A stretch of DNA of 32,000 bases from Staphylothermus marinus F1. GTDB lineage: Archaea > Thermoproteota > Thermoprotei_A > Sulfolobales > Desulfurococcaceae. The notes beneath the pieces are model-generated. The model had not been told where the DNA came from and did not search any database. It saw nothing but the letters and a program-made list of their open reading frames with translations. The stretch is from assembly GCF_000015945.1 (NCBI RefSeq), contig NC_009033.1, positions 330,001 to 362,000 on the forward strand. Reading direction: 5' to 3'. Of this stretch, positions 548 to 22,621 are shown in pieces. Position 1 is the stretch's first letter, and the number at the start of each line of letters is the position of its first letter. A program made the position numbers and the translations under genes.

Positions 548-1162
548 CTTTCAATTCTTTTAATGGTGTTACGGAATCATATAAATCAACTGTTTGCTGG
601 TCTAGACGTAGCTTTCAATTCTTTCTGTGTTGTTACCCAACTCTGCTACGTCCTAGCACTCTAACAGGTATCTTTGCTTTCAATTCTTTCTATGTTGTTA
701 CTCTCGGAATAAATCTTAAATATAGAACTTGGGGAACGAAACTTTCAATTCTTTCTATGTTGTTACATGGCTCTACTAATGCTATCAACATGGATAACGA
801 AGAATATTACTTTCAATTCTTTCTATGTTGTTACCCCGCCTCGAGTAACGGGGGGCAGACACGGGGCTTAGAGCTTTCAATTCTTTCTATGTTGTTACGT
901 ATATTTGTTCCCGATTTAAGACCGTTTATTATACAGTTACCTTTCAATTCTTTCTATGTTGTTACCAATGATTACCCAGAAAGAGATCGTTGAATATGTT
1001 AGGAACTTTCAATTCTTTCTATGTTGTTACTTAAGACATGGGAAAACCCAAATTTTAAACTGTAAATGTTCTTTCAATTCTTTCTATGTTGTTACTTGTC
1101 CGTGATATTTCTAATGGGTTTTCCATATAGTATTCTGCTTTCAATTCTTTCTATGTTGTTAC
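548..1162 (-). CRISPR. CRISPR array 1: 10 repeats, 9 spacers of 39-43 bp
   Basis: The 25-bp repeat CTTTCAATTCTTTCTATGTTGTTAC (+ strand) starts at 548, 612, 677, 742, 810, 874, 941, 1006, 1071 and 1138. The copies at 548 (3 mismatches) and 612 (1 mismatch) are degenerate, marking the distal end. The leader lies at the 1163 side, so transcription is on the - strand. In RNA sense the repeat is GTAACAACATAGAAAGAATTGAAAG and ends in the ATTGAAAG 8-nt tag. Confidence 0.97.
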
Positions 1163-1336: not shown

Positions 1337-2311
1337 TTAGGTTGTTTTTATGCTTGGTTTGTGTAGTATTTGGTTTGTTTTTAGTAGGTATTTTGTGTTT
1401 GTGTTTGTTTCTTCTAGGAGTAGGTGTCCTGCGTAGTAGTCTTGTATTATTAGTTGTTTTCCTATTATTTGTTTTAGGTTTGTTTCTTTTGCTTTATGGT
1501 ATTCTGTTATTTCTGTGTTTGGTTCTATTCGGAATATTGTTGGTTGTTTTGTTTGTTTTATTCCTAGGATTCGCTGTGTTTTTGTAAGTGTTTTTTCTAG
1601 TTTTAACAGTACTGGTGGTATTGGTGTTTTTATTGTTTCTTTTAGTTTTCTATGTGGTTTTTCTGTTAGTCTTTCTAGTTTTCCGGCTTTGATCTCTATG
1701 TTTCTTGTTTCTACTGCGCTGTTAGATGTGTATAGTGTTGTTGCTACTATGTGTGGTTGTTCAGCTATTCTATCTAGTAGTCTCCATGTTCTTGTTGTTC
1801 CTACTTTGAATTTGTCTTTGTTGTAGGCTAGTAGGTAGACTGTATAGTTTATTTTATCTTTGTATTTCTCATCTAGTATCCAGCAGTTTCTCAAGCTTTC
1901 TAGTCCCGCTGTTGAGAAGCATTTGGAATATATTGCTCTAATACTATTCCTATGCTTCGAGCAGTATCCAAGCTCTGAAACCGCTTCTCTAACACAGTAT
2001 TCCCTCTCTAAAGGATTATCTTTCCTCTCCAATGGACCATTATGCCAGCGACAATACTCTACATAGTTCTCCACAAACATAATTTTCTCGCCGGGAACAA
2101 TTAAGTGTAGTATATGCGAACCCTCCTCCTGAGCAATTAAACCATAAAATACAAGCTTATACCTAACAAGCTCCCTACCCATCTCCAAACCCATAAACAT
2201 ATCCAACCCAGAAACTCTAACATACTCCTTAGAATAAAACCTCGTATCAAAATAGAAAAGCCTAGGTATCAAAACATATCCCTCCCCCCATAAATCCATA
2301 AATTTCCTCAC
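1337..2311 (-). CDS. Uncharacterised 324-aa protein located between two CRISPR arrays
   Basis: Only long ORF in the 1.2-kb interval between leader 1 and the distal end of array 2; GTG start. It has YC-x-x-H motifs (YCRWH, YCSKH) and a segment, YTVYLLAYNKDKFKVGTTRTWRLLDRIAEQ, that resembles GIY-YIG/T5orf172-like cores (weak, from memory). The C-terminal third is K/T/N/Q/P-rich low complexity caused by nucleotide skew. Confidence 0.6.
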   Translation of the reverse strand: MRKFMDLWGEGYVLIPRLFYFDTRFYSKEYVRVSGLDMFMGLEMGRELVRYKLVFYGLIAQEEGSHILHLIVPGEKIMFVENYVEYCRWHNGPLERKDNPLEREYCVREAVSELGYCSKHRNSIRAIYSKCFSTAGLESLRNCWILDEKYKDKINYTVYLLAYNKDKFKVGTTRTWRLLDRIAEQPHIVATTLYTSNSAVETRNIEIKAGKLERLTEKPHRKLKETIKTPIPPVLLKLEKTLTKTQRILGIKQTKQPTIFRIEPNTEITEYHKAKETNLKQIIGKQLIIQDYYAGHLLLEETNTNTKYLLKTNQILHKPSIKTT

Positions 2312-2545: not shown

Positions 2546-3483
2546 CTTTCAATTCTTTCTATGTTGTTACCTATCACTTCTATTTTGATCTATGGGAGGA
2601 GAACCCGTTACTTTCAATTCTTTCTATGTTGTTACGAGAAAATACTGCGTGAACTCTCTAAGCATGATTGTCGAGCTTTCAATTCTTTCTATGTTGTTAC
2701 ATTGACTCCTAATTTGTTTCTGCAAAAACGTGATATGCTCTTTCAATTCTTTCTATGTTGTTACTTAGAGTTACCTAGGGAACAGGTTTACGACTTAGTA
2801 ACTCAATCTTTCAATTCTTTCTATGTTGTTACATACACCGATCGAAGTTATTGAAGAATACGAGAGGGAAATATCTTTCAATTCTTTCTATGTTGTTACA
2901 AATACACTTGTCCAATATGCGGTAAAGAGTTTAAGAGTGCTTTCAATTCTTTCTATGTTGTTACATGGATTGTAATAAAATACAGAGCCGATTGGAGCTG
3001 GAACTTTCAATTCTTTCTATGTTGTTACTAGGGGGCAAGATCAAGGTTAGCCTCAAGGCTATGGCTACCTTTCAATTCTTTCTATGTTGTTACTGTTGTG
3101 TTGTGGGTTGTTGTTGTGTTTTTTTGTGTGTCTCTTTCAATTCTTTCTATGTTGTTACTTAGAGTTACCTAGGGAACAGGTTTACGACTTAGTAACTCAA
3201 TCTTTCAATTCTTTCTATGTTGTTACCATTTGAAGTATTTCGGCTAGACGTTTCCAGCCCATGTATCTTTCAATTCTTTCTATGTTGTTACTAATATAAA
3301 TAAGAGTGAGGATAAGAAGCAAGAAAAAATACTTTCAATTCTTTCTATGTTGTTACACCATCTGGTGAACGGGCCATTGGTGCTGTATGGTATAGCTTTC
3401 AATTCTTTCTATGTTGTTACCAAGCCATTCAAGCCATTGAACTATTTTTTTATGCATACTTTCAATTCTTTCTATGTTGTTAC
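2546..3483 (-). CRISPR. CRISPR array 2: 15 repeats, 14 spacers
   Basis: Repeat CTTTCAATTCTTTCTATGTTGTTAC starts at 2546, 2611, 2676, 2740, 2808, 2875, 2940, 3004, 3069, 3134, 3202, 3267, 3332, 3396 and 3459. The leader follows at 3484. One 43-bp spacer occurs twice (2765-2807 and 3159-3201). Confidence 0.97.
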
Positions 3484-3642
3484 TTTGGTTCGAATATGTT
3501 GTTACATTTATCTTTTTTGTTCGAACCACTATATATTTCTTTCTATATTTAATTCCTAGATTGATCGTGTTCGACCAGTTTTCTATAGACTTAATAGTAT
3601 CTTTGAGGTATTGACGGGTTTGTATAATGAAAAACATTCGAC
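3484..3642 (-). promoter_or_regulatory. CRISPR leader of array 2
   Basis: Conserved leader copy. Its repeat-proximal end carries GTAACAACATA (RNA sense), an 11-nt copy of the repeat 5' end, directly before the first repeat. Confidence 0.85.
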
Positions 3643-3711
3643 TAGTTTCCATTAGTTTTATGGGTAAAGTTTCTATATTTTTCTATACTATTTTTTATTT
3701 GGTGGCTGGTT

Positions 3712-4737
3712 TTGGTGTTTTTGACTGATTGGGGTCACTTGGTTGTTGATGATTATGGTGTTTTTCTTCGTAAGAAGCATGGTAGGATTGTTGTTGTTTC
3801 TAGGGGTGGTAGGGAGGAGTTTCCTGTTAGGAGGGTTCGTGAGGTTATTATTTCTGGTAAGGCTGGTATTAGTACTGAGTTGTTGAAGCTTCTTGCTGAT
3901 TCGGGCATTGATGTTTTGGTAACTTCTTATACTGGTAGGCCTGTTGCATTATTTGTTCATGCTAGGAGTGGTGGTAGTGTTAGGAATAGGATTGAGCAGT
4001 ATAGGTCGTTGGAGGATGGAAGGGCTTGTAAAGCTGCAGCTATGATTATCTCTGGTAAGTTGAGTAACCAGGTTAGTAACTTGAAATACTATAGCAAGCC
4101 TAGGAAGAACATTTCTCAGGAATCTAAAATACTGTATGAGAAGGCTGAGGAGATTAAGAAACTTAGAGAAAAGCTTAGAGATATTGAGACAAGTGATCTC
4201 GGGAAGTGTAGGGAGAATATTATGAGTATTGAGGCTCAAGCAGCTAATACTTACTGGGATGGTATGAGAATTGTTCTGGGTAAATATGGGTTTAAGGAGA
4301 GAGTGAAGAGGGGGAGAGGAAAAGAGGTTGATCCCGTAAATCTATGTCTCAACATTATATATAATAAGCTCGCAGGTACTGTCTGGAAATACGTGTTGAG
4401 ATTCAGCCTAGATCCTTTTCAAGGCTTCCTACATGCTAGGAGGCCTGGTAAATTATCTCTTGTGTATGATTTAATGGAGCCTTTCAGACCTATTGCTGAT
4501 AGATTTATTGCTAGGTTCCTATATAGGCTTGATCAAGGATTTCTAAGGAGAGCTAGCGGAGCTGAATTAGCCAAGTTGTTGACTAAGAAATACTATGAGG
4601 AATTCACTAGGCAGAGAATAGAGTATAAAGCTAGGAAGATGACCATGGAAGCAGCTGTTTTCTGGTTTGTACAGGAAATAGTTAGATTCTTAAATAATAG
4701 AACATCATCTATACAACCACCATATATGCCTTGGTGA
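3712..4737 (+). CDS. cas1: Cas1 integrase
   Basis: 341 aa. The C-terminal region FQGFLHARRPGKLSLVYDLMEPFRP matches the Cas1 catalytic-core signature. It is followed by csa1, cas2 and cas4. TTG/GTG start. Confidence 0.93.
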   Translation: MVFLTDWGHLVVDDYGVFLRKKHGRIVVVSRGGREEFPVRRVREVIISGKAGISTELLKLLADSGIDVLVTSYTGRPVALFVHARSGGSVRNRIEQYRSLEDGRACKAAAMIISGKLSNQVSNLKYYSKPRKNISQESKILYEKAEEIKKLREKLRDIETSDLGKCRENIMSIEAQAANTYWDGMRIVLGKYGFKERVKRGRGKEVDPVNLCLNIIYNKLAGTVWKYVLRFSLDPFQGFLHARRPGKLSLVYDLMEPFRPIADRFIARFLYRLDQGFLRRASGAELAKLLTKKYYEEFTRQRIEYKARKMTMEAAVFWFVQEIVRFLNNRTSSIQPPYMPW

Positions 4738-4745
4738 CTTAGACA

Positions 4746-5678
4746 ATGTATTATTTAGATGAAATAGAATATAAGCTGTTAATACATGATCTCCTCCCTC
4801 GTACTAGAGAGAACCCAATAGATGATCGTTTACGGGGGTGGAACTGGCACCAACCCCCTGTTAGACCATATAGTTTCGAGCTACAACTACCCATATGGGA
4901 AATCGCTGGATCAATTTGTCCAACATATAGAGATGTATGGATTAGGAGAAAAGTTCTCAGGAAGAAATTGTTTACAACTAGTAAGCAAGCTGAGGGAGTA
5001 ATCATACATAAAATAGTATCACATGTATTCAAGGAGGCTAAGAAGCTGATTTATTCAGGTGACTATTCTGATCTAAAAAACGCGTTACTTCCCGGCGTTA
5101 AAGAGCTTGTTGATAACGAGGTAAAATACATTAGTGAACTAGTAGAGAATATTGATGCTAATAAGATAAAAGAGTTCGCATTACAAGTAGCTGATTGGGA
5201 AATGCTAAGGATCGAGGGCAGGATTAACACGGTTAAAGCTAAGTATCCATATATTGATGAAGAAGGACTTGTAAGTCTCGCGGTTCCTGTAAGTCTTGAA
5301 ATGCCTGTTGATGGGAGGCTTCTAGGTTTAAGCAGTATGTTAAGAGTGGATGCTTCATGGCTACCCGGTGGTTTAATATATGAGATCAAAACAGGGTATA
5401 GGGAGAAATGGCATAAACTACAAGTCGCAGGATACGCGTTAGCATTGGAGAGTATATATGAGAGACCAGTCGATATAGGAGTGGTGGTTTATGTTAATAG
5501 AGCTGTTGAGGGTATACGTGTGAATAGAGATATTTTTGTGGTAAGCGATGATTTAAGATCAAGGTTTCTGGAGAAGAGAGACGAGATACAAATGCTCCTA
5601 CTCAAAGGTGAGGAACCCAGAATACCTGATAAGTGCCCGCGTAAATGCTTGTTTAGAAATATATGTTTAGGAGAATGA
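4746..5678 (+). CDS. csa1: Csa1 (Cas4-like RecB-fold nuclease of type I-A adaptation modules)
   Basis: 310 aa. RecB-like motif LIYEIKTG plus a C-terminal Cys cluster, DKCPRKCLFRNIC. Lies between cas1 and cas2, as in crenarchaeal I-A cassettes. Confidence 0.75.
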   Translation: MYYLDEIEYKLLIHDLLPRTRENPIDDRLRGWNWHQPPVRPYSFELQLPIWEIAGSICPTYRDVWIRRKVLRKKLFTTSKQAEGVIIHKIVSHVFKEAKKLIYSGDYSDLKNALLPGVKELVDNEVKYISELVENIDANKIKEFALQVADWEMLRIEGRINTVKAKYPYIDEEGLVSLAVPVSLEMPVDGRLLGLSSMLRVDASWLPGGLIYEIKTGYREKWHKLQVAGYALALESIYERPVDIGVVVYVNRAVEGIRVNRDIFVVSDDLRSRFLEKRDEIQMLLLKGEEPRIPDKCPRKCLFRNICLGE

Positions 5679-5684
5679 TCCGGG

Positions 5685-5951
5685 TTGAAAACTCTCATAG
5701 TATATGATATATCGAGTACGAAACTACGCAGTAAAGTCGCGGAGATACTGAAGGATTGGGGATTAACACGTATTCAATTAAGCGCGTTTATCGGCGAGTT
5801 AACGCCTCAGGAAAGAAATGATCTAGCAGAATATTTGAAGAGACTGCCCTTATCGGAACGTGATAAAATAGATATTTTCCCAATATGTATTAAGGATCTA
5901 AAGCTACACATGAGAATAGTTAAGGGAAGTATCAAGCATGGAGAACCCTGA
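5685..5951 (+). CDS. cas2: Cas2
   Basis: 88 aa. The N-terminus KTLIVYDIS is typical of the Cas2 ferredoxin fold. TTG start. Overlaps cas4 by 14 nt. Confidence 0.9.
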   Translation: MKTLIVYDISSTKLRSKVAEILKDWGLTRIQLSAFIGELTPQERNDLAEYLKRLPLSERDKIDIFPICIKDLKLHMRIVKGSIKHGEP

Positions 5952-6501
5952 AAACAAGTTCACAGTTAGAATGGTTGAAGAATATATTTTCTGCCCACTA
6001 GTATTCTACTATAAATACGTTCTAGGAATAAAAAAGCCTCCAAGCCTATGGAGCAATTTAGGGCGCCAAGTAGAGGAGGAGTTATCGAGGTATGTTGAAG
6101 AACACTATAATGTTATTGGTAAACAAGTCTTTCTAGAATCGAAAAAATATAGTCTAGCAGGAATAGTAGACTACATAGTAAAATATAGAGGAACATATAC
6201 ACCACTAGAAATAAAGTATAGTAGAAAACTAAAACCCTGGTGGAAATATACATTAACAACATATGCACTCCTAGTAGAAGAAACCTACTATAAACCTGTA
6301 AAAAACGCAATCCTAATAATGCCAGGACCAAAAACAACAATAATCAATATTACAAGCAACGATAGAAACTACATAATAAAAACACTAGAAAACATGAAGA
6401 AAACACTCGAAGAACAAACAACACCAAAACCAACACCTTCAAAATCATGCATCAACTGCGACTACAAAAACATATGCCCATACCAAACAAAAAACCAATA
6501 G
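5938..6501 (+). CDS. cas4: Cas4 (RecB-family exonuclease with Fe-S cysteines)
   Basis: 187 aa. N-terminal Cys (YIFCPLVFYY), the D...EIKYS nuclease motif and C-terminal CINCDYKNIC. The stop lies 8 bp before leader 3. Confidence 0.9.
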   Translation: MENPENKFTVRMVEEYIFCPLVFYYKYVLGIKKPPSLWSNLGRQVEEELSRYVEEHYNVIGKQVFLESKKYSLAGIVDYIVKYRGTYTPLEIKYSRKLKPWWKYTLTTYALLVEETYYKPVKNAILIMPGPKTTIINITSNDRNYIIKTLENMKKTLEEQTTPKPTPSKSCINCDYKNICPYQTKNQ

Positions 6502-6508
6502 AAATGTG

Positions 6509-6666
6509 GTCGAATGTTTTTCATTATACAAACCCATCAATACCTCAAAGATACTATTAAGTCTATAGAAAACCAGTCGAACACGATCAATTAGGGATCA
6601 AATATAGAAAAACATATATAACAATTCGAACAGATTAAATAAATGTAACAACGTATTCGAACCAAA
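6509..6666 (+). promoter_or_regulatory. CRISPR leader of array 3
   Basis: Reverse complement of leaders 1 and 2 with scattered substitutions. TCGAAC motifs at 6577, 6626 and 6657, GTCGAAT at 6509, TATA-like CATATATAAC near 6625-6635, and the half-repeat GTAACAACGTA at 6645-6655. Confidence 0.85.
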
Positions 6667-7597
6667 GTAGCAACATAGAAAGAATTGAAAGCCTCATAAA
6701 AACAATGTCTTAAAAAACAATTATATTTAAGTAGCAACATAGAAAGAATTGAAAGCTCAGCAATCAGCTTATTATCTCTATAAACCCTGATATTGGTAGC
6801 AACATAGAAAGAATTGAAAGTTCTTTTCTTGAGGGCTTCTCTAAGGGTTTCGGCTACTATGTAGCAACATAGAAAGAATTGAAAGTAGGCGAGGACGACA
6901 TGGTTAGGTGGAGAGCGAGAACCCGTTGTAGCAACATAGAAAGAATTGAAAGTCCCCCGCCACACCACGCACACAAAACATGCATGCAAAAGTAGCAACA
7001 TAGAAAGAATTGAAAGTTGTAGAATAGCCTGGGCTACTGCCTCTACCTTCTCTTTAGTAGCAACATAGAAAGAATTGAAAGTTTATCCCCACAAACCTTA
7101 GCAGTATATCGTATAACTGGTAGCAACATAGAAAGAATTGAAAGCGGACTCGGTTTTGCCAGCGATATCGGGGTAGCGGATGTGTAGCAACATAGAAAGA
7201 ATTGAAAGGTCCATAAATTTGTGGAGCATACTCTACTAGCATTTCATGTAGCAACATAGAAAGAATTGAAAGAAGATTAATGGAATTGCAACGCTTATTA
7301 ATGCTATTATTAGGTAGCAACATAGAAAGAATTGAAAGCTGCCGTATCAAGCTTCGGCACAATTTTTGTCCTAAATATGTAGCAACATAGAAAGAATTGA
7401 AAGTTAGAGACCTATGCGTCCTAATAGAGGTATTGCTCTCCTAGGTAGCAACATAGAAAGAATTGAAAGATAGGAACCGCTCTGTGGCATGCGTTTATAG
7501 AAATTGGTAGCAACATAGAAAGAATTGAAAGAGAGATACAGCGAGATAGATTATACGCCGACAATTGACCAAGTAGCAACATAGAAAGAATTGAAAG
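6667..7597 (+). CRISPR. CRISPR array 3: 15 repeats, 14 spacers
   Basis: Repeat GTAGCAACATAGAAAGAATTGAAAG starts at 6667, 6731, 6796, 6861, 6928, 6992, 7057, 7120, 7184, 7248, 7314, 7379, 7445, 7507 and 7573. All 15 copies carry G at position 4; the other arrays carry A. Confidence 0.97.
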
Positions 7598-7612
7598 ATT
7601 ATTTGGGGTTCC

Positions 7613-19873: not shown

Positions 19874-20581
19874 CTATTTTCCCTCCTTTAACTTGATGAA
19901 TTCCTCAATAATTTTGTCTCCAGTGCTTGTCCCTATGCGTGATGCTCCTGCATCAATCATTGCTAATGCGTCTAGAGCGTGTCTTATACCTCCTGCAGCT
20001 TTAACTTTTATTCTCCCCTTAGCAACTCTATATAGTAATGCTACATCATGTATTGTAGCACCACCTGCTAAGAACCCTGTGGAAGTCTTAACATAGTCCG
20101 CTCCACTCTCAACTACAAGCTCTGTAGCCTTAACTTTTTCTTCATCACTCAACAAACCAGTTTCAATAATGACTTTAACTACACCAATATTATTTTTCCT
20201 AGCCTCCAATACAACATGCTTCATATCATCCAATACACGATCATAGTCTCCGCTCTTAAAATAATTAATATTCATAACCATATCAACTTCGGAAGCACCA
20301 GCTTGAGCAGCTAAACGAGTCTCTAAAACCTTAGCTCCAGCAAAAGTATTCCCCAACGGGAAACCAATAACAGTAGCCAACCTAATCGTATTACCAGCAA
20401 TCTCACGAGCCTTCAACAATAAACTAGGCGGAAGCATTAACACTGCAAAACCATACCTCCTAGTATCCTCAACATATTTCTCCAACAACTTATAATCAGC
20501 ATAAGGCTTCAACAAAGTATGATCAATCATAGAAGCAAACTCCTTAACACTAAGCTTCTCAACAAGCGAACCAACACCCAT
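19874..20581 (-). CDS. deoC: Deoxyribose-phosphate aldolase
   Basis: DeoC-type TIM-barrel sequence (DHTLLKP..., VIGFPLG, VDMVMNI, DYVKTSTGF with the Schiff-base Lys context, KAAGGIR). I place the start at the ATG at 20581 (MGVGSLVEKL). The longer ORF to 20767 runs into the CRISPR leader. Confidence 0.85.
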   Translation of the reverse strand: MGVGSLVEKLSVKEFASMIDHTLLKPYADYKLLEKYVEDTRRYGFAVLMLPPSLLLKAREIAGNTIRLATVIGFPLGNTFAGAKVLETRLAAQAGASEVDMVMNINYFKSGDYDRVLDDMKHVVLEARKNNIGVVKVIIETGLLSDEEKVKATELVVESGADYVKTSTGFLAGGATIHDVALLYRVAKGRIKVKAAGGIRHALDALAMIDAGASRIGTSTGDKIIEEFIKLKEGK

Positions 20582-20681
20582 AACACACCACCCCATAACT
20601 ATAAAATATAGCATCAAAACATATAAAACCACACCAAACACAAAACCAAGAAAAAAACACATACAAAACCAATGGAAACTG

Positions 20682-20839
20682 GTCGAATATTTTTCATTAT
20701 ACAAACTCGTCAAGGGGTCAGAGATACTATTAAACCAATAGAAAATCACTCGAACATGATCAATCAAGGATCAAATATGGAAAAACATATATAACATTTC
20801 GAACAAAAAAGATAAATGTAGCAAAGTATTCGAACCAAT
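20682..20839 (+). promoter_or_regulatory. CRISPR leader of array 4
   Basis: Fourth copy of the conserved leader and the most diverged. Ends with the half-repeat GTAGCAAAGTA directly before the first repeat. Confidence 0.8.
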
Positions 20840-21179
20840 GTAACAACATAGAAAGAATTGAAAGCGCTGGAGACTGGGTCTATGTGATACTGTGGAGATC
20901 TCCCGTAACAACATAGAAAGAATTGAAAGAGCTAGGGGGGATATAGCACCAGATACTCCTATATCCTCAGTAACAACATAGAAAGAATTGAAAGATTATA
21001 TATATTGTTTGGTATACATTTACTATTTTTAATGTAACAACATAGAAAGAATTGAAAGTCGAACCATATAGACATTCTCCCATTCGCACTAACTGTAAAG
21101 TAACAACACAGAAAGAATTGAAAGCATTGCAGTTATCGCATTGAGCACTTACTGGTAACAACATTAAAAGAATTGAAAG
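20840..21179 (+). CRISPR. CRISPR array 4: 6 repeats, 5 spacers, no adjacent cas genes
   Basis: Repeat GTAACAACATAGAAAGAATTGAAAG starts at 20840, 20905, 20970, 21034, 21100 and 21155. The last two are degenerate (ACACAG; ACATTAAAAG). The last spacer is only 30 bp, against 39-41 bp for the others. Confidence 0.95.
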
Positions 21180-21337
21180 AAATATTGACTAGAGGTATGA
21201 TCATTATTGGGGAGAAAGATGAAGTAATGAAGTGTTTTGATCGGGTGCTTGGGGAAAGATGTGTAGTGTTTTTTGTATTGTGTGGGGTTTATTGTTTTAT
21301 TGTTTAGGGTTTTGAGTTTGTTTGTTAGAATATTAGT

Positions 21338-22621
21338 TTATGTGTGTTGGTTTAGTAGTTTTATGATTTTTGGCAGCATTTCCCATCCATGAGGTATTAT
21401 TCCTAGTTTTCCTTTTCTGCATTCTTTTTCTGTTAGTTTTGTTGTTTGGTCTGGCTGTATTGTTTCTGCCATTACTGCTACGGGGACTGGATCATCTGTG
21501 TGTGCTCCTATAGATGGGGGTGTTGCGTGGTCTGCTGTTACTAGTATTGCTGTGTTACTACTCATTTTTTCTAGGAATGGTTGGACAAAGTATTTATCTA
21601 TATCTTCTATTCTCTTCTTTTTCAACTCTATGTTTCCATCGTGTCCTGGTTCATCTGGTCCTTTTAGGTGTACATAGACTATATCATATTTTTTAAGTGC
21701 TTCCAATGATTTCTCGAGTCTAACACTATATACCTCACTGGGATCTCCTATTGGTGGTTCTAACGCTATTGTGTCTGCTCCAAATATTCTACCAATCCCT
21801 ATTTCTACAGGCATTTCAGCTAAGACCGCAAATTTTAAACCATATTTTATGGGTAATGGAGTTGTTTTGGGTAGTGTTCCCCCAGCGTCTCGGAGCAGGA
21901 TAGCGTTTCCAGGCAATAAACCCTTTTCTTTCCTCTTAATGTTTACTGGGTGCTTATCTAGTATTTCAATTGTTTTCTCCGTGAAAATATTTGCTAGCTC
22001 AGCTGTTCTCTTAGCTTCTTCTGTGTTTTCGAGAGCTTCGACAGGTTTAATATATGGTTCGAACTCTTTAACTGCAATATTCAATAATCCTTTACGAATA
22101 TATGCTGGATCACTGTTGCTAACATATGGGCTTAACCTATATTTATCACTGCTAATAACAACAACTGCTCTATGACCAATAGTGGCTTTAACTCTTGCAT
22201 ATCCATCATATTTTCCAAGATCAAGACCGTCAACAGCTTTAGCAAGCTCGTTGGCTTCTTCAGTGGATAAGCTTCTGCCAACCCTTCTATCAATTAATTT
22301 CTTAGTCTTGGGATCAACTGTTGCGAAATTAGCTCTAAAAGCTACCTCATAGCCCTCCCTAATACTTAGCCCAGCACCAACTGCTTCAATAACCCCCCTA
22401 CCAGGATATACTTCGTGAGGATTATATCCAAGAATAGATATAACTGCTTCATCGCTTTCAGGAGCCACACCCTTCCCAACAGTATACATTAAACCGCAAA
22501 CACCATTACGAGCAATATAGTCTAATCCAGGCTTCACAGCAAGTTCCAACGTAGTAGCTGGGTCATCTAGTCTATCAGCCATACCATCTAGGACAAGATA
22601 TAATAATTTCTTAACCGACAT
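21338..22621 (-). CDS. apgM: Cofactor-independent phosphoglycerate mutase, archaeal type
   Basis: 427 aa. N-terminus LYLVLDGMADR, an HLKGPDEPGHDG metal-site region and VTADHATP are typical of archaeal ApgM (alkaline phosphatase superfamily). Confidence 0.85.
   Translation of the reverse strand: MSVKKLLYLVLDGMADRLDDPATTLELAVKPGLDYIARNGVCGLMYTVGKGVAPESDEAVISILGYNPHEVYPGRGVIEAVGAGLSIREGYEVAFRANFATVDPKTKKLIDRRVGRSLSTEEANELAKAVDGLDLGKYDGYARVKATIGHRAVVVISSDKYRLSPYVSNSDPAYIRKGLLNIAVKEFEPYIKPVEALENTEEAKRTAELANIFTEKTIEILDKHPVNIKRKEKGLLPGNAILLRDAGGTLPKTTPLPIKYGLKFAVLAEMPVEIGIGRIFGADTIALEPPIGDPSEVYSVRLEKSLEALKKYDIVYVHLKGPDEPGHDGNIELKKKRIEDIDKYFVQPFLEKMSSNTAILVTADHATPPSIGAHTDDPVPVAVMAETIQPDQTTKLTEKECRKGKLGIIPHGWEMLPKIIKLLNQHT

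Follow-up and report, generated by a model that had tools for sequence, protein, structure and literature searches.

The window of 32,000 nt analyzed here is the type I-A CRISPR-Cas region of Staphylothermus marinus F1. It contains four CRISPR arrays, each of which appears to be the center of a local bias affecting the two DNA strands differently. On seven of the eight array flanks, the strand that runs 5' to 3' away from the array was rich in G+T, and this polarity extended into neighboring genes regardless of their orientation. We interpret the pattern as a strand-asymmetric substitution bias around arrays that resembles damage by heat to single-stranded DNA, with outward transcription or R-loops as its most probable driver, a reading that we hold with about as much confidence as doubt. 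No earlier description of a local skew near arrays was found in our literature searches.

The pattern was first noticed around array 4 (20840..21179, plus strand), which is transcribed from left to right, matches the Rfam family CRISPR-DR27, and consists of five spacers and six repeats of GTAACAACATAGAAAGAATTGAAAG, the last of which is degenerate. An alignment of the four leaders delimited its conserved leader core of approximately 165 nt (20670..20839, plus strand), which contains four TCGAAC motifs. The array is flanked by two minus-strand genes, deoC (19874..20581; deoxyribose-phosphate aldolase, 235 aa, Pfam DeoC), whose 5' end, with the ATG at 20581, faces the leader, and apgM (21338..22621; cofactor-independent phosphoglycerate mutase, 427 aa, Pfam PhosphMutase and Metalloenzyme), whose 3' end faces the trailer; both products were 100% identical to S. 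marinus F1 proteins. The mechanical open reading frame of deoC extends to 20767, and homologs favor the 235-aa product. The leader-side skewed zone (20200..20669) begins at the distal edge of the leader core and spans the deoC promoter region and approximately the first 125 deoC codons; its minus (outward) strand is G+T-rich, with a plus-strand G+T fraction of 0.26-0.35. The trailer-side skewed zone (21180..21700) spans the noncoding trailer (21180-21337) and approximately the last 120 apgM codons, and its plus (outward) strand has a G+T fraction of 0.61-0.82.

Recounting reproduced exactly the hand tallies of the first-pass annotation, which had described a plus-strand G+T content of 17% left of the leader and 83% right of the array: G+T was 16.7% at 20581-20640 (A32 C18 G1 T9) and 83.3% at both 21241-21300 (two C residues) and 21301-21360 (no C). 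These two stretches had been called mostly noncoding, which is correct for 21241-21337, whereas 21338-21360 already belongs to apgM as its 3' end. The codon tallies were also exact; G or T ended 56 of the first 60 but 22 of the last 60 deoC codons (Fisher P = 3e-11), while 60 of the last 70 apgM codons ended in A or C and 41 of the first 60 in G or T (Fisher P = 3e-10). Two genes on the same strand shift in opposite directions; as had been proposed, the sign is set by position relative to the array, and it depends neither on gene orientation nor on which gene end is involved. The G+T fraction at third codon positions (GT3) in successive 30-codon blocks from the deoC 5' end was 1.00, 0.87, 0.87, 0.77, 0.70, 0.60, 0.40, and 0.32. 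The skew is far beyond chance: flank windows reached a G+T fraction of 0.75-0.83, whereas the 179 windows of 100 nt located over 2 kb from every array stood at 0.494 +/- 0.068 and none exceeded 0.65.

The same polarity was observed at the other three arrays. Array 1 (548..1162, minus strand, 10 repeats) had a plus-strand G+T fraction of 0.64-0.83 on its leader side (approximately 1163-1900); its trailer side (1-547) was unskewed and was the sole exception among the eight flanks. Array 2 (2546..3483, minus strand, 15 repeats) was flanked by an A+C-rich plus strand on the trailer side (2001-2545) and a G+T-rich plus strand on the leader side (3484-4020), the latter spanning the 5' end of cas1, where GT3 fell from 0.97, 1.00, 0.87, and 0.83 to 0.50 further into the gene. 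For array 3 (6667..7597, plus strand, 15 repeats of the GTAGCAAC variant), the plus strand was A+C-rich on the leader side (6190-6666), spanning the 3' end of cas4 (GT3 of 0.13 and 0.10), and G+T-rich on the trailer side (7598-8100), spanning the 3' end of cas6. Gene X (1337..2311, minus strand; 324 aa, no assigned function) lies between arrays 1 and 2; its coding strand is G+T-rich in the 5' part and A+C-rich in the 3' part, with an outward GT3 of 0.95 at the array 1 end and 0.76 at the array 2 end, and its protein changes from a G/V/F/L/W-rich N-terminus to a K/T/N/Q/P-rich C-terminus.

When the flanks were pooled, outward GT3 decreased with distance from the array, from 0.94 within 200 nt through 0.88, 0.87, 0.77, 0.69, 0.62, and 0.55 to a baseline of 0.48. 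An exponential fit (A = 0.56, lambda = 495 nt, likelihood-ratio chi2 = 373) gave a decay length of approximately 500 nt, a quantity that the first-pass annotation had raised; the bias faded over a distance of approximately 0.5-0.7 kb. The flank profile was low at 0-100 nt, peaked at 200-400 nt, and had decayed by approximately 700 nt. Gene orientation had no effect (0.85 in outward-transcribed and 0.79 in inward-transcribed genes). The flanks of the 6-repeat array 4 were as strongly skewed as those of the 15-repeat arrays, and this independence of spacer number fits sources at the array borders, for example the leader promoter region and read-through.

The repeats at the skew centers are the CRISPR repeats together with the leader TCGAAC motifs; CRISPR-DR27 and one tRNA were the only known RNA families in the sequences examined. 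Homology among the four leaders ended approximately 165 nt from the first repeat, beyond which the four upstream sequences were unrelated, yet each was A+C-rich on the sense strand. The skewed zone thus lies outside the conserved part of the leader and does not share its conservation. Since the trailers had no mutual homology either, we rejected the possibility that the skew was carried along by leader or trailer homology.

The base preference of the outward strand was T >> G > A > C, while the G+C content was unchanged across the skewed zones. At two-fold sites approaching an array, T/(T+C) climbed gradually from 0.65 to 1.00, as did G/(G+A), which started at 0.35 and reached 0.95; at four-fold sites, T rose from 0.38 to 0.88 and A fell from 0.41 to 0.03, with G at approximately 0.1 throughout. 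Runs of five or more T residues occurred 8.3 times per kb on the outward strand, compared with 1.3 on the inward strand and 1.3-2.9 in the background. Synonymous sites were nearly saturated, and amino acids were altered in deoC, apgM, cas1, and gene X. A parallel shift in amino-acid usage had been predicted and was indeed found, toward G+T-rich codons at deoC residues 1-30 (+0.08 vs 59 homologs) and toward A+C-rich codons at apgM residues 391-420 (-0.14, t = -3.8, vs 76 homologs).

Comparison with relatives showed that the gradient depends on the array. In strains L081 and L166 (approximately 98% identical), both the array and the gradient are kept, and the two trailer-nearest array 4 spacers of L081 are identical to those of F1. 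In L082 (81-86% amino-acid identity), the gene order AspRS-apgM-[311-aa ORF]-deoC-cas6 is kept, and both the array and the gradient are absent; at codons for the same amino acid, GT3 was 0.00-0.20 in F1 and 0.40-1.00 in L082 for apgM 361-427, and 0.75-1.00 and 0.54-0.78, respectively, for deoC 1-120. The gradient was also absent from 78 of 80 more distant array-free apgM orthologs. Their median GT3 over the last 70 codons was 0.46, only 1 of the 80 was as low as F1 (at most 0.14), and none reached the 5'-3' GT3 difference of F1 apgM (0.54). Three further deoC orthologs lacked the gradient as well. An intragenic gradient in array-free orthologs, which the first-pass annotation had named as fatal to its proposal, was therefore not encountered in L082 or as a rule among the 80 apgM and 3 deoC sequences.

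These comparisons, with the predicted amino-acid shift, uphold the earlier argument that neither selection on proteins nor horizontal origin of the cas genes explains the gradient. Horizontal transfer or a shift in G+C content was rejected on account of the constant G+C content and the gradients within intact conserved genes, and selection on codon usage is further opposed by the dependence of the sign on array position. Chance and artifact are countered by exact counts with Fisher P values of approximately 1e-10 and by independent assemblies from other samples (L081, L166, and L167) with the same skew; nothing specific favors an artifact, although some A+C-rich segments of the comparison loci (in L014, L034, and L077) proved to be runs of N. 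We assign a vanishingly small probability to chance, sequencing or assembly artifact, horizontal DNA, and selection on proteins or codon usage together.

Among related crenarchaeal cas1-cas4 modules (Cas1 65-68% identical, contigs ending in repeats), GT3 at the cas1 5' end was 0.93-0.97. The cas4 3' end of L174 had a GT3 of 0.07-0.20, and weaker forms of the skew were present in L098, L115, L156, and L163. Skewed relatives at this distance point to long-term maintenance of the pattern. The skew is not a general feature of CRISPR arrays; mean outward G+T was 0.504 over 66 flanks of 49 arrays at loci encoding Cas1 and 0.489 at arrays with other repeat families, and the affected arrays were only a subset of those with ATTGAAAG-type repeats. 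In other lineages, the leader side was affected more often than the trailer side (0.55 vs 0.50). Within arrays, the spacers were unskewed (mean G+T 0.484) and had no trend with position, and ageing of spacers inside the arrays was rejected. Two resident spacers had a flank-like composition (G+T of 0.03 and 0.18); no self-match of the A+C-only spacer was found in the window or the comparison loci.

The same polarity was also observed at rare sites away from arrays. It occurred at long near-perfect palindromes in relatives, which had no match among known RNA families, and in the L048 clade it switched in one intergenic region between convergent genes where no source was recognized. Approximately 2 Mb of related loci contained three paired switches, each of the outward type, and no inward one. 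Among 780 ORFs in array-free loci, extreme gene ends were all of the outward sense: GT3 was at least 0.8 at seven 5' ends and at most 0.2 at none, whereas it was at most 0.2 at five 3' ends and at least 0.8 at none; one of these extreme gene ends sits upstream of a tRNA gene. Of the flanks of seven tRNA genes, those downstream of six were unskewed (0.52) and one upstream flank was strongly skewed; apart from that one flank, seven genes are too few to be informative about transcription. The first 20 codons of 785 ORFs had a mean GT3 of 0.55, compared with approximately 0.50 deeper in the gene; with only approximately 1% extreme gene ends, transcription or translation acting on 5' ends in general was rejected as a sufficient cause.

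The skewed flanks suggest that some process opens DNA strand-specifically beside arrays. The position dependence that the first-pass annotation had ascribed to mutation pressure was borne out by the array-free orthologs; we infer that mutation rather than selection on the DNA produces the bias, that it involves single-stranded DNA, and that it stems from transcription. The outward strand gains T and G at the expense of A and C, with coding constraint resisting in part. C-to-T and A-to-G changes occur jointly on one strand, and purines also give way to T where all changes are synonymous, matching the heat damage expected of single-stranded DNA at approximately 90 C: cytosine deamination, adenine deamination, and loss of purines, with A then inserted opposite the gap. 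Something traveling outward from the array borders would repeatedly unpair the outward strand or shield the inward strand. The most likely driver would be outward transcription with R-loops, supplied on the trailer side by precursor crRNA reading through beyond the last repeat and on the leader side by divergent or antisense transcription exiting via the distal edge of the leader core; either way, transcription would leave the outward strand exposed as the non-template strand. Promoters for sense and antisense transcripts lie inside crenarchaeal (Sulfolobales) arrays (Blombach et al. 2023, doi 10.1101/2023.03.24.534125), and strand-asymmetric processing of DNA has hotspots at the arrays of the hyperthermophile Pyrococcus furiosus (Shiimori et al. 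2017, PMC5737086).

The base spectrum here has a counterpart in an organelle genome. On the heavy strand of vertebrate mitochondrial DNA, synonymous sites undergo C-to-T and A-to-G changes in proportion to the time spent single-stranded. As there, both transitions fall on one strand, are graded, and reach amino-acid usage; unlike there, where the cause is an asymmetric mode of replication, the bias is local to arrays and includes an extra shift from purine to T at four-fold sites. In transcription-associated mutagenesis, R-loop-linked skew, and immunoglobulin somatic hypermutation, excess damage falls on the non-template strand and is heaviest over the few hundred bases that follow the promoter. 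Their distance profile is similar to ours, and the polarity fits deoC, cas1, and the 5' end of gene X, for which the G+T-enriched strand is the non-template strand. At the 3' ends of apgM, cas4, cas6, and gene X, however, it is the template of the annotated gene, so that the transcription reading requires antisense or read-through transcripts at four of the seven flanks. Ordinary transcription has only a small effect on genes of these archaea (0.55 vs approximately 0.50) and none downstream of the six tRNA genes, which argues against this reading. Further points against it are the unskewed trailer of array 1, the lack of skew at most arrays elsewhere, and the switch in the L048 clade.

Diversity among three strains on the apgM side of array 4 bears on whether the bias is mutational or selected; the strain comparison covers that side, an exact look-up of the deoC product having yielded no record. 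The skewed part of apgM had 2 variable sites in 463 nt, compared with 9.5 expected from 20.6 per kb elsewhere (P approximately 0.004); diversity is therefore low, not high, which speaks against a mutational reading. An equilibrium two-state calculation from the site frequencies predicted approximately 1.4-2.3 times background diversity for an added forward mutation rate, 0.2-0.3 times for a suppressed reverse rate, and 0.5 times for selection. Within the cas1-cas4 module, the same pair of strains differs at only 2 of 2903 positions despite approximately 2% divergence elsewhere, a near-identity that points to a recent exchange of the CRISPR region and confounds the diversity test. The lowered diversity would suit flanks selected at the DNA level as insulators, in which T-runs terminate transcripts leaving the array and in which there is no TATA box and no folding of either strand because one strand is nearly free of A and the other of T. 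Runs of T are archaeal transcription termination signals, and their excess on the outward strand, the predominance of T at four-fold sites, and the persistence of the pattern among relatives with saturated synonymous sites all accord with such insulation. It would nevertheless demand strong selection at nearly every synonymous site over approximately 1 kb per array, outweighing amino-acid changes in conserved enzymes. Selection for terminators leaves the A-to-G shift at two-fold purine sites unexplained, the smooth exponential decay resembles distance-dependent exposure rather than an element with edges, and most arrays of other lineages lack the skew; we regard insulation as rather unlikely.

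Two further explanations were considered. CRISPR machinery could process DNA at arrays if integration nicks at the leader-proximal repeat, or R-loops formed by self-spacers, admitted an outward 3'-to-5' helicase-nuclease such as Cas3'/Cas3''; the inward strand would be degraded, and the outward strand would stay single-stranded until the gap was refilled. The genes cas3' and cas3'' are present in the window, a 3'-to-5' motor leaving the array would track the inward strand and expose the outward one, and both the more frequent involvement of leader sides in other lineages and the two spacers of flank-like composition are in line with this explanation. In P. furiosus and the type I-E system of E. 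coli, protospacer hotspots reveal DNA processing at arrays on opposite strands either side of the first spacer, with a strand preference that flips across the array, and were ascribed to integration nicks (PMC5737086, where the E. coli work is also reviewed). Those are short-term spacer-uptake data centered on the first repeat, however, and no compositional effect was reported, whereas the skew described here is an evolutionary footprint on both array borders. The trailer flank of array 4, which is 340 nt long, is no more skewed than trailer flanks 930 nt away from the first repeat, which is at odds with a source at that repeat. Moreover, the skew is no stronger where spacers are more numerous, its polarity recurs outside arrays (at palindromes, between convergent genes, and in front of a tRNA gene), and most arrays near type I systems are unskewed, making CRISPR machinery an unlikely cause. 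Quite improbable in our view is outward DNA synthesis from arrays, through break repair, fork restart, or origin-like firing at structure-prone DNA, with the outward strand acting as exposed lagging-strand template or as a new strand enriched in G+T via G-T mispairs. A switch from A+C to G+T marks bacterial replication origins, where the leading strand is rich in G and T and the sign flips, and a comparable switch toward an enriched outward strand crosses each center here; the outward direction of all paired switches in related loci, the polarity of the palindromes, and the frequent recombination suggested by the near-identical cas1-cas4 module fit as well. Bacterial skew, however, extends over a whole replichore at a few percent, compared with approximately 0.5 kb and 94% here, where many centers, each a CRISPR array, lie within 21 kb. 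The persistent long-distance skew of a crenarchaeal oriC was not seen, the baseline being reached within approximately 0.7 kb even though forks travel far; such an origin would also adjoin an orc1/cdc6 or whiP initiator gene, and a Pfam scan of 20 window ORFs identified cas and housekeeping genes and no Orc1/Cdc6. Mispairing of G and T alone would leave four-fold sites with a mixture of the two bases instead of 88% T. We rejected 5'-to-3' resection from a break in the array with deamination of the 3' tail, since the inward strand would then be the exposed one and the predicted skew would be reversed. The broader proposition that hyperthermophilic crenarchaeal arrays are sites of repeated strand-specific outward opening or degradation of DNA, via CRISPR machinery or origin-like restart, is one that we entertain tentatively while thinking it somewhat unlikely.

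If the arrays are such opening sites, the skew would be a permanent record of their activity with a measurable cost to neighboring housekeeping genes, and the long palindromes, which share its polarity, would form a second such class. A mutational footprint would also show that an immune locus can damage the genes next to it, here the coding sequences of deoC, apgM, cas1, and gene X. Selected flanks, in contrast, would constitute an unrecognized insulator architecture around arrays. Either way, events at array borders are testable by standard mapping of transcripts, R-loops, and nicks. If the bias is mutational, the footprint would be a natural strand-specific probe of the exposed strand beside arrays in an organism that is not genetically manipulable. 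It would permit detection, from sequence alone, of active or long-resident arrays and of other sites of recurrent DNA opening in hyperthermophiles, and it may help in dating when arrays were gained or lost.

The Staphylothermus marinus F1 window, from a marine hyperthermophile of the Desulfurococcales, contains a type I-A CRISPR-Cas region, in which our ORF and Pfam scans placed cas1-csa1-cas2-cas4, cas6 and csa3, cas7, cas5, cas3' and cas3'', and a second cas6. Four CRISPR arrays sharing the repeat GTAACAACATAGAAAGAATTGAAAG are located at 548-1162 and 2546-3483 on the minus strand (arrays 1 and 2) and at 6667-7597 and 20840-21179 on the plus strand (arrays 3 and 4). The complete F1 genome carries 12 arrays (PMC3035234). 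Arrays 1 and 2 are separated by gene X (1337-2311, minus), a 324-aa ORF with a weak DUF2797 match, and array 4 is flanked by deoC (19874-20581, minus) and apgM (21338-22621, minus), whose products were 100% identical to S. marinus F1 proteins. One 43-nt spacer was present twice in array 2 (2765-2807 and 3159-3201), indicating that its repeat-spacer units have been internally duplicated.

The first-pass annotation had reported opposite codon-ending gradients in deoC and apgM toward array 4, and a recount returned exactly the same figures. The three 60-mers flanking the array contained 17%, 83%, and 83% G+T, as against 0.494 +/- 0.068 (maximum, 0.65) in background 100-nt windows. Fifty-six of the 60 deoC codons near the array ended in G or T, falling to 22 of 60 (Fisher test, P = 3e-11), while 60 of 70 codons at the 3' end of apgM ended in A or C and 41 of 60 at its 5' end in G or T (P = 3e-10). 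When the strand running 5' to 3' away from an array (the outward strand; its complement is the inward strand) was considered, G+T reached 0.70-0.83 at seven of the eight array flanks in the window, the sole unskewed flank being that on the trailer side of array 1, at the window's left end. The skew was greatest at 100-400 nt from the edge of the array and returned to baseline by 600-800 nt. Outward third-position G+T, pooled over all genes, was 0.94 at 0-200 nt from the array and then 0.88, 0.87, 0.77, 0.69, 0.62, and 0.55 with increasing distance, reaching 0.48 at distances above 800 nt; the fitted exponential had an amplitude of 0.56 and decayed with a length constant of 495 nt (likelihood-ratio chi2 = 373). 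Genes with their 5' ends toward an array (deoC, cas1, and gene X) had a G+T-rich coding strand there (0.85), and those with their 3' ends toward an array (apgM, cas4, cas6, and gene X) had an A+C-rich coding strand there (outward G+T, 0.79). The side of the array alone sets the sign of the skew, which bears out the opposite responses noted earlier for the two minus-strand genes.

On the outward strand, the skewed zones consisted of 19% A, 11% C, 24% G, and 46% T, compared with a background of about 32, 18, 18, and 32%, respectively; G+C content was unaltered. At two-fold degenerate sites, T/(T+C) rose from 0.65 to 1.00 and G/(G+A) from 0.35 to 0.95, and at four-fold sites T rose from 0.38 to 0.88, A fell from 0.41 to 0.03, and G stayed at approximately 0.1. 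The preference on the outward strand is T >> G > A > C, and runs of five or more T were enriched on it (8.3 per kb). Amino-acid usage shifted in parallel, as G+T at codon positions 1 and 2, compared with homologs, moved in the direction of the local skew in deoC residues 1-30 (+0.08), apgM residues 391-420 (-0.14; t = -3.8), and Cas1 residues 1-90 (+0.07 to +0.10). The apgM C-terminus differed from that of a close relative by replacements such as V->I, A->T, G->N, and E->Q. The N-terminus of the gene X product was rich in G, V, F, L, and W and its C-terminus in K, T, N, Q, and P, a gradient that mirrors, within one protein, both of the opposite skew zones that the gene spans.

Homology among the four leaders is confined to a core of approximately 165 nt (20670-20839 in leader 4, with equivalents in leaders 1-3), which carries four spaced TCGAAC motifs. 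Its distal element, TTTTTCATTATACAAAC, is invariant and, on the opposite strand, reads like a TATA element facing outward; this may represent the promoter of the adaptation operon, duplicated with each leader. The skew started at the distal edge of this core, in sequence that was non-homologous among the four arrays, and the four trailers likewise showed no mutual homology. We therefore rejected the explanation that the skew is part of the conserved leader, as the skewed zone lies beyond the core. Since neither the skewed leader-side sequences nor the trailers are homologous, the skew arose independently at every flank. Two spacers, at 3094-3133 in array 2 and 6953-6991 in array 3, were of extreme sense-strand composition (G+T of 0.03 in AGACACACAAAAAAACACAACAACAACCCACAACACAACA and 0.18 in the other), similar to the A+C-rich sequence upstream of the leaders; this hints that some spacers were acquired from array flanks, and neither spacer matched any sequence in the fetched loci or elsewhere in the window.

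Comparison with relatives showed that the gradient accompanies the array and not the genes. In two strains approximately 98% identical to F1 from independent read sets (L081 and L166), both the array after apgM and the A+C-rich 3' end were kept. In a more distant relative (L082; 81-86% amino-acid identity), the order AspRS-apgM-deoC-cas6 was kept, the array was missing, and a 311-aa ORF without a Pfam match occupied its place between apgM and deoC (9212-10147 of that locus). A T-rich patch was present in this ORF at 9327-9739. When codons for the same amino acid were compared, L082 showed no gradient in either gene: the fraction of codons ending in G or T (GT3) was 0.40-1.00 in apgM codons 361-427 (0.00-0.20 in F1) and 0.54-0.78 in deoC codons 1-120 (0.75-1.00 in F1). 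Among 80 distant apgM loci, one genome per species and with no array within 10 kb, GT3 of the last 70 codons had a median of 0.46 (SD, 0.09); the F1 value of 0.14 was equalled or undercut in one, and its 5'-3' difference of 0.54 was reached by none. GT3 of the first and last 60 codons in three further array-less deoC genes was 0.73/0.58, 0.48/0.58, and 0.47/0.40, compared with 0.93/0.37 in F1.

The skew was not general to CRISPR arrays. In a survey of 49 arrays in Cas1-encoding metagenome and genome contigs, G+T of the outward strand, taken 50-450 nt from each array, averaged 0.504 overall and 0.489 for arrays with other repeat types (maximum, 0.60); on the leader side of ATTGAAAG-type arrays, the mean was 0.55, with 5 of 16 at 0.60 or more. 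In two relatives with contigs ending in repeats (L174 and L175, with Cas1 68% and 65% identical, respectively), GT3 at the 5' end of cas1 was 0.93-0.97, and that at the 3' end of cas4 in L174 was 0.07-0.20. Skew was weaker in L098, L115, L156, and the Desulfurococcus mucosus-like L163. As most surveyed arrays were unskewed and only some related ones were skewed, the footprint is restricted to certain lineages. Because it has been kept between relatives so diverged that their synonymous sites are saturated, the force behind it must be a continuing one and not a single burst.

The same polarity occurred at sites other than CRISPR arrays. Approximately 2 Mb of fetched loci contained three outward and no inward paired switches, and the extreme gene ends among 780 ORFs in array-free loci were outward in 12 cases and inward in none. 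Near-perfect palindromes, 180-260 nt long and without an Rfam match, formed the centres of two of the switches (L029 2182-2400 and L030 3798-4062) and of a related site (L031 8208-8412); in each of these three Desulfurococcaceae MAGs, the palindrome lies between apgM and a gene for a SAM-methyltransferase. The palindrome arms were 90-96% complementary, with a G+C-rich clamp (GGCCCSGCSG) at the base in L029 and L030, and the sequences diverge between genomes yet remain palindromic; their flanks showed outward G+T polarity (0.29 and 0.70 in L029 and L030), and the arms were also skewed. The third switch, from A+C-rich to G+T-rich, was mapped to a conserved spacer of approximately 55 nt between apgM and a convergent neighbour in a four-member clade (L048 3129-3180; homologous sites in L039, L041, and L044), where neither an array nor a palindrome was present; both convergent genes had A+C-rich 3' ends. 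One of the extreme gene ends lies upstream of a tRNA-Met gene (L025 30-106, minus), a further non-CRISPR source of outward polarity. The G+T-rich zone there (25-682) extends over the 3' end of an ORF of 1329 aa, and GT3 in the final 60 codons of this ORF was 0.12. In L014, L034, and L077, what looked like A+C-rich segments and 100-nt palindromes proved to be masked N runs and was discarded.

Polarity is the main constraint on the mechanism. If an array were broken and its ends then resected 5'->3' in the usual way, the inward strand would become single-stranded, and a skew opposite to that observed would be expected. A replication origin at the skew centre was rejected, as no initiator gene was present among the 20 window ORFs scanned and the skew is gone within 0.7 kb. 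A process moving outward that leaves the outward strand unpaired fits the polarity, and heat damage to single-stranded DNA fits the base spectrum. Candidates are transcription, in which the outward strand would be the non-template or displaced R-loop strand; a 3'->5' helicase-nuclease travelling on the inward strand; and forks moving outward from the array. We favour outward transcription with R-loops because the strength of the skew does not increase with the number of spacers, because the skew begins at the leader-core and last-repeat borders, because it also occurs at non-CRISPR sites, and because firing in both directions is known for crenarchaeal arrays (doi 10.1101/2023.03.24.534125). 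The peak at 200-400 nt and subsequent decay resemble the profile of promoter-proximal hypermutation, and outward T5+ runs would end archaeal transcripts and could restrict the length of the zone. Ordinary genes showed only a weak transcription-linked effect. Alternatively, the CRISPR machinery itself may drive the skew; in its favour, strand-asymmetric DNA processing has hotspots at the arrays in both P. furiosus and E. coli and has been ascribed to integration nicks (PMC5737086).

Strain diversity bears on how such a process would act. A comparison of three strains gave 2 variable sites in the skewed 463-nt part of apgM against 9.5 expected (20.6 per kb elsewhere; P ~0.004) and 4 in the 156-nt trailer. 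Based on the equilibrium frequencies observed, a two-state calculation predicted diversities of approximately 1.4-2.3 times background for added forward mutation, 0.2-0.3 times for suppressed reverse mutation (with the inward strand protected or preferentially repaired), and 0.5 times for selection. The low diversity thus favours suppressed reverse mutation and selection over added forward mutation, in a test that is weak and confounded, because near-identity of the cas1-csa1-cas2-cas4 module (3618-6520; 2 of 2903 positions differ between F1 and L167 from SRR5453780) points to recent exchange of the CRISPR region. The same two strains are approximately 2% different around apgM, which suggests that the CRISPR-cas region was recently exchanged or swept. 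Of the position-dependent mutation pressure originally proposed, dependence on position stands; added forward mutation is disfavoured by this weak test.

In how it works, the array footprint resembles replication skew, the heavy-strand gradient of mitochondrial DNA, and transcription-associated mutagenesis. Full-text literature searches returned no description of local strand skew beside CRISPR arrays or in Staphylothermus. We rate the array-flank skew as a strong and reproducible footprint of mutational type, for which we infer a mutational cause. The arrays of S. marinus are consistent hotspots of a process seen at approximately 1% of gene ends elsewhere, and their flanking skew, though akin to known mutational footprints, is apparently described here for the first time.
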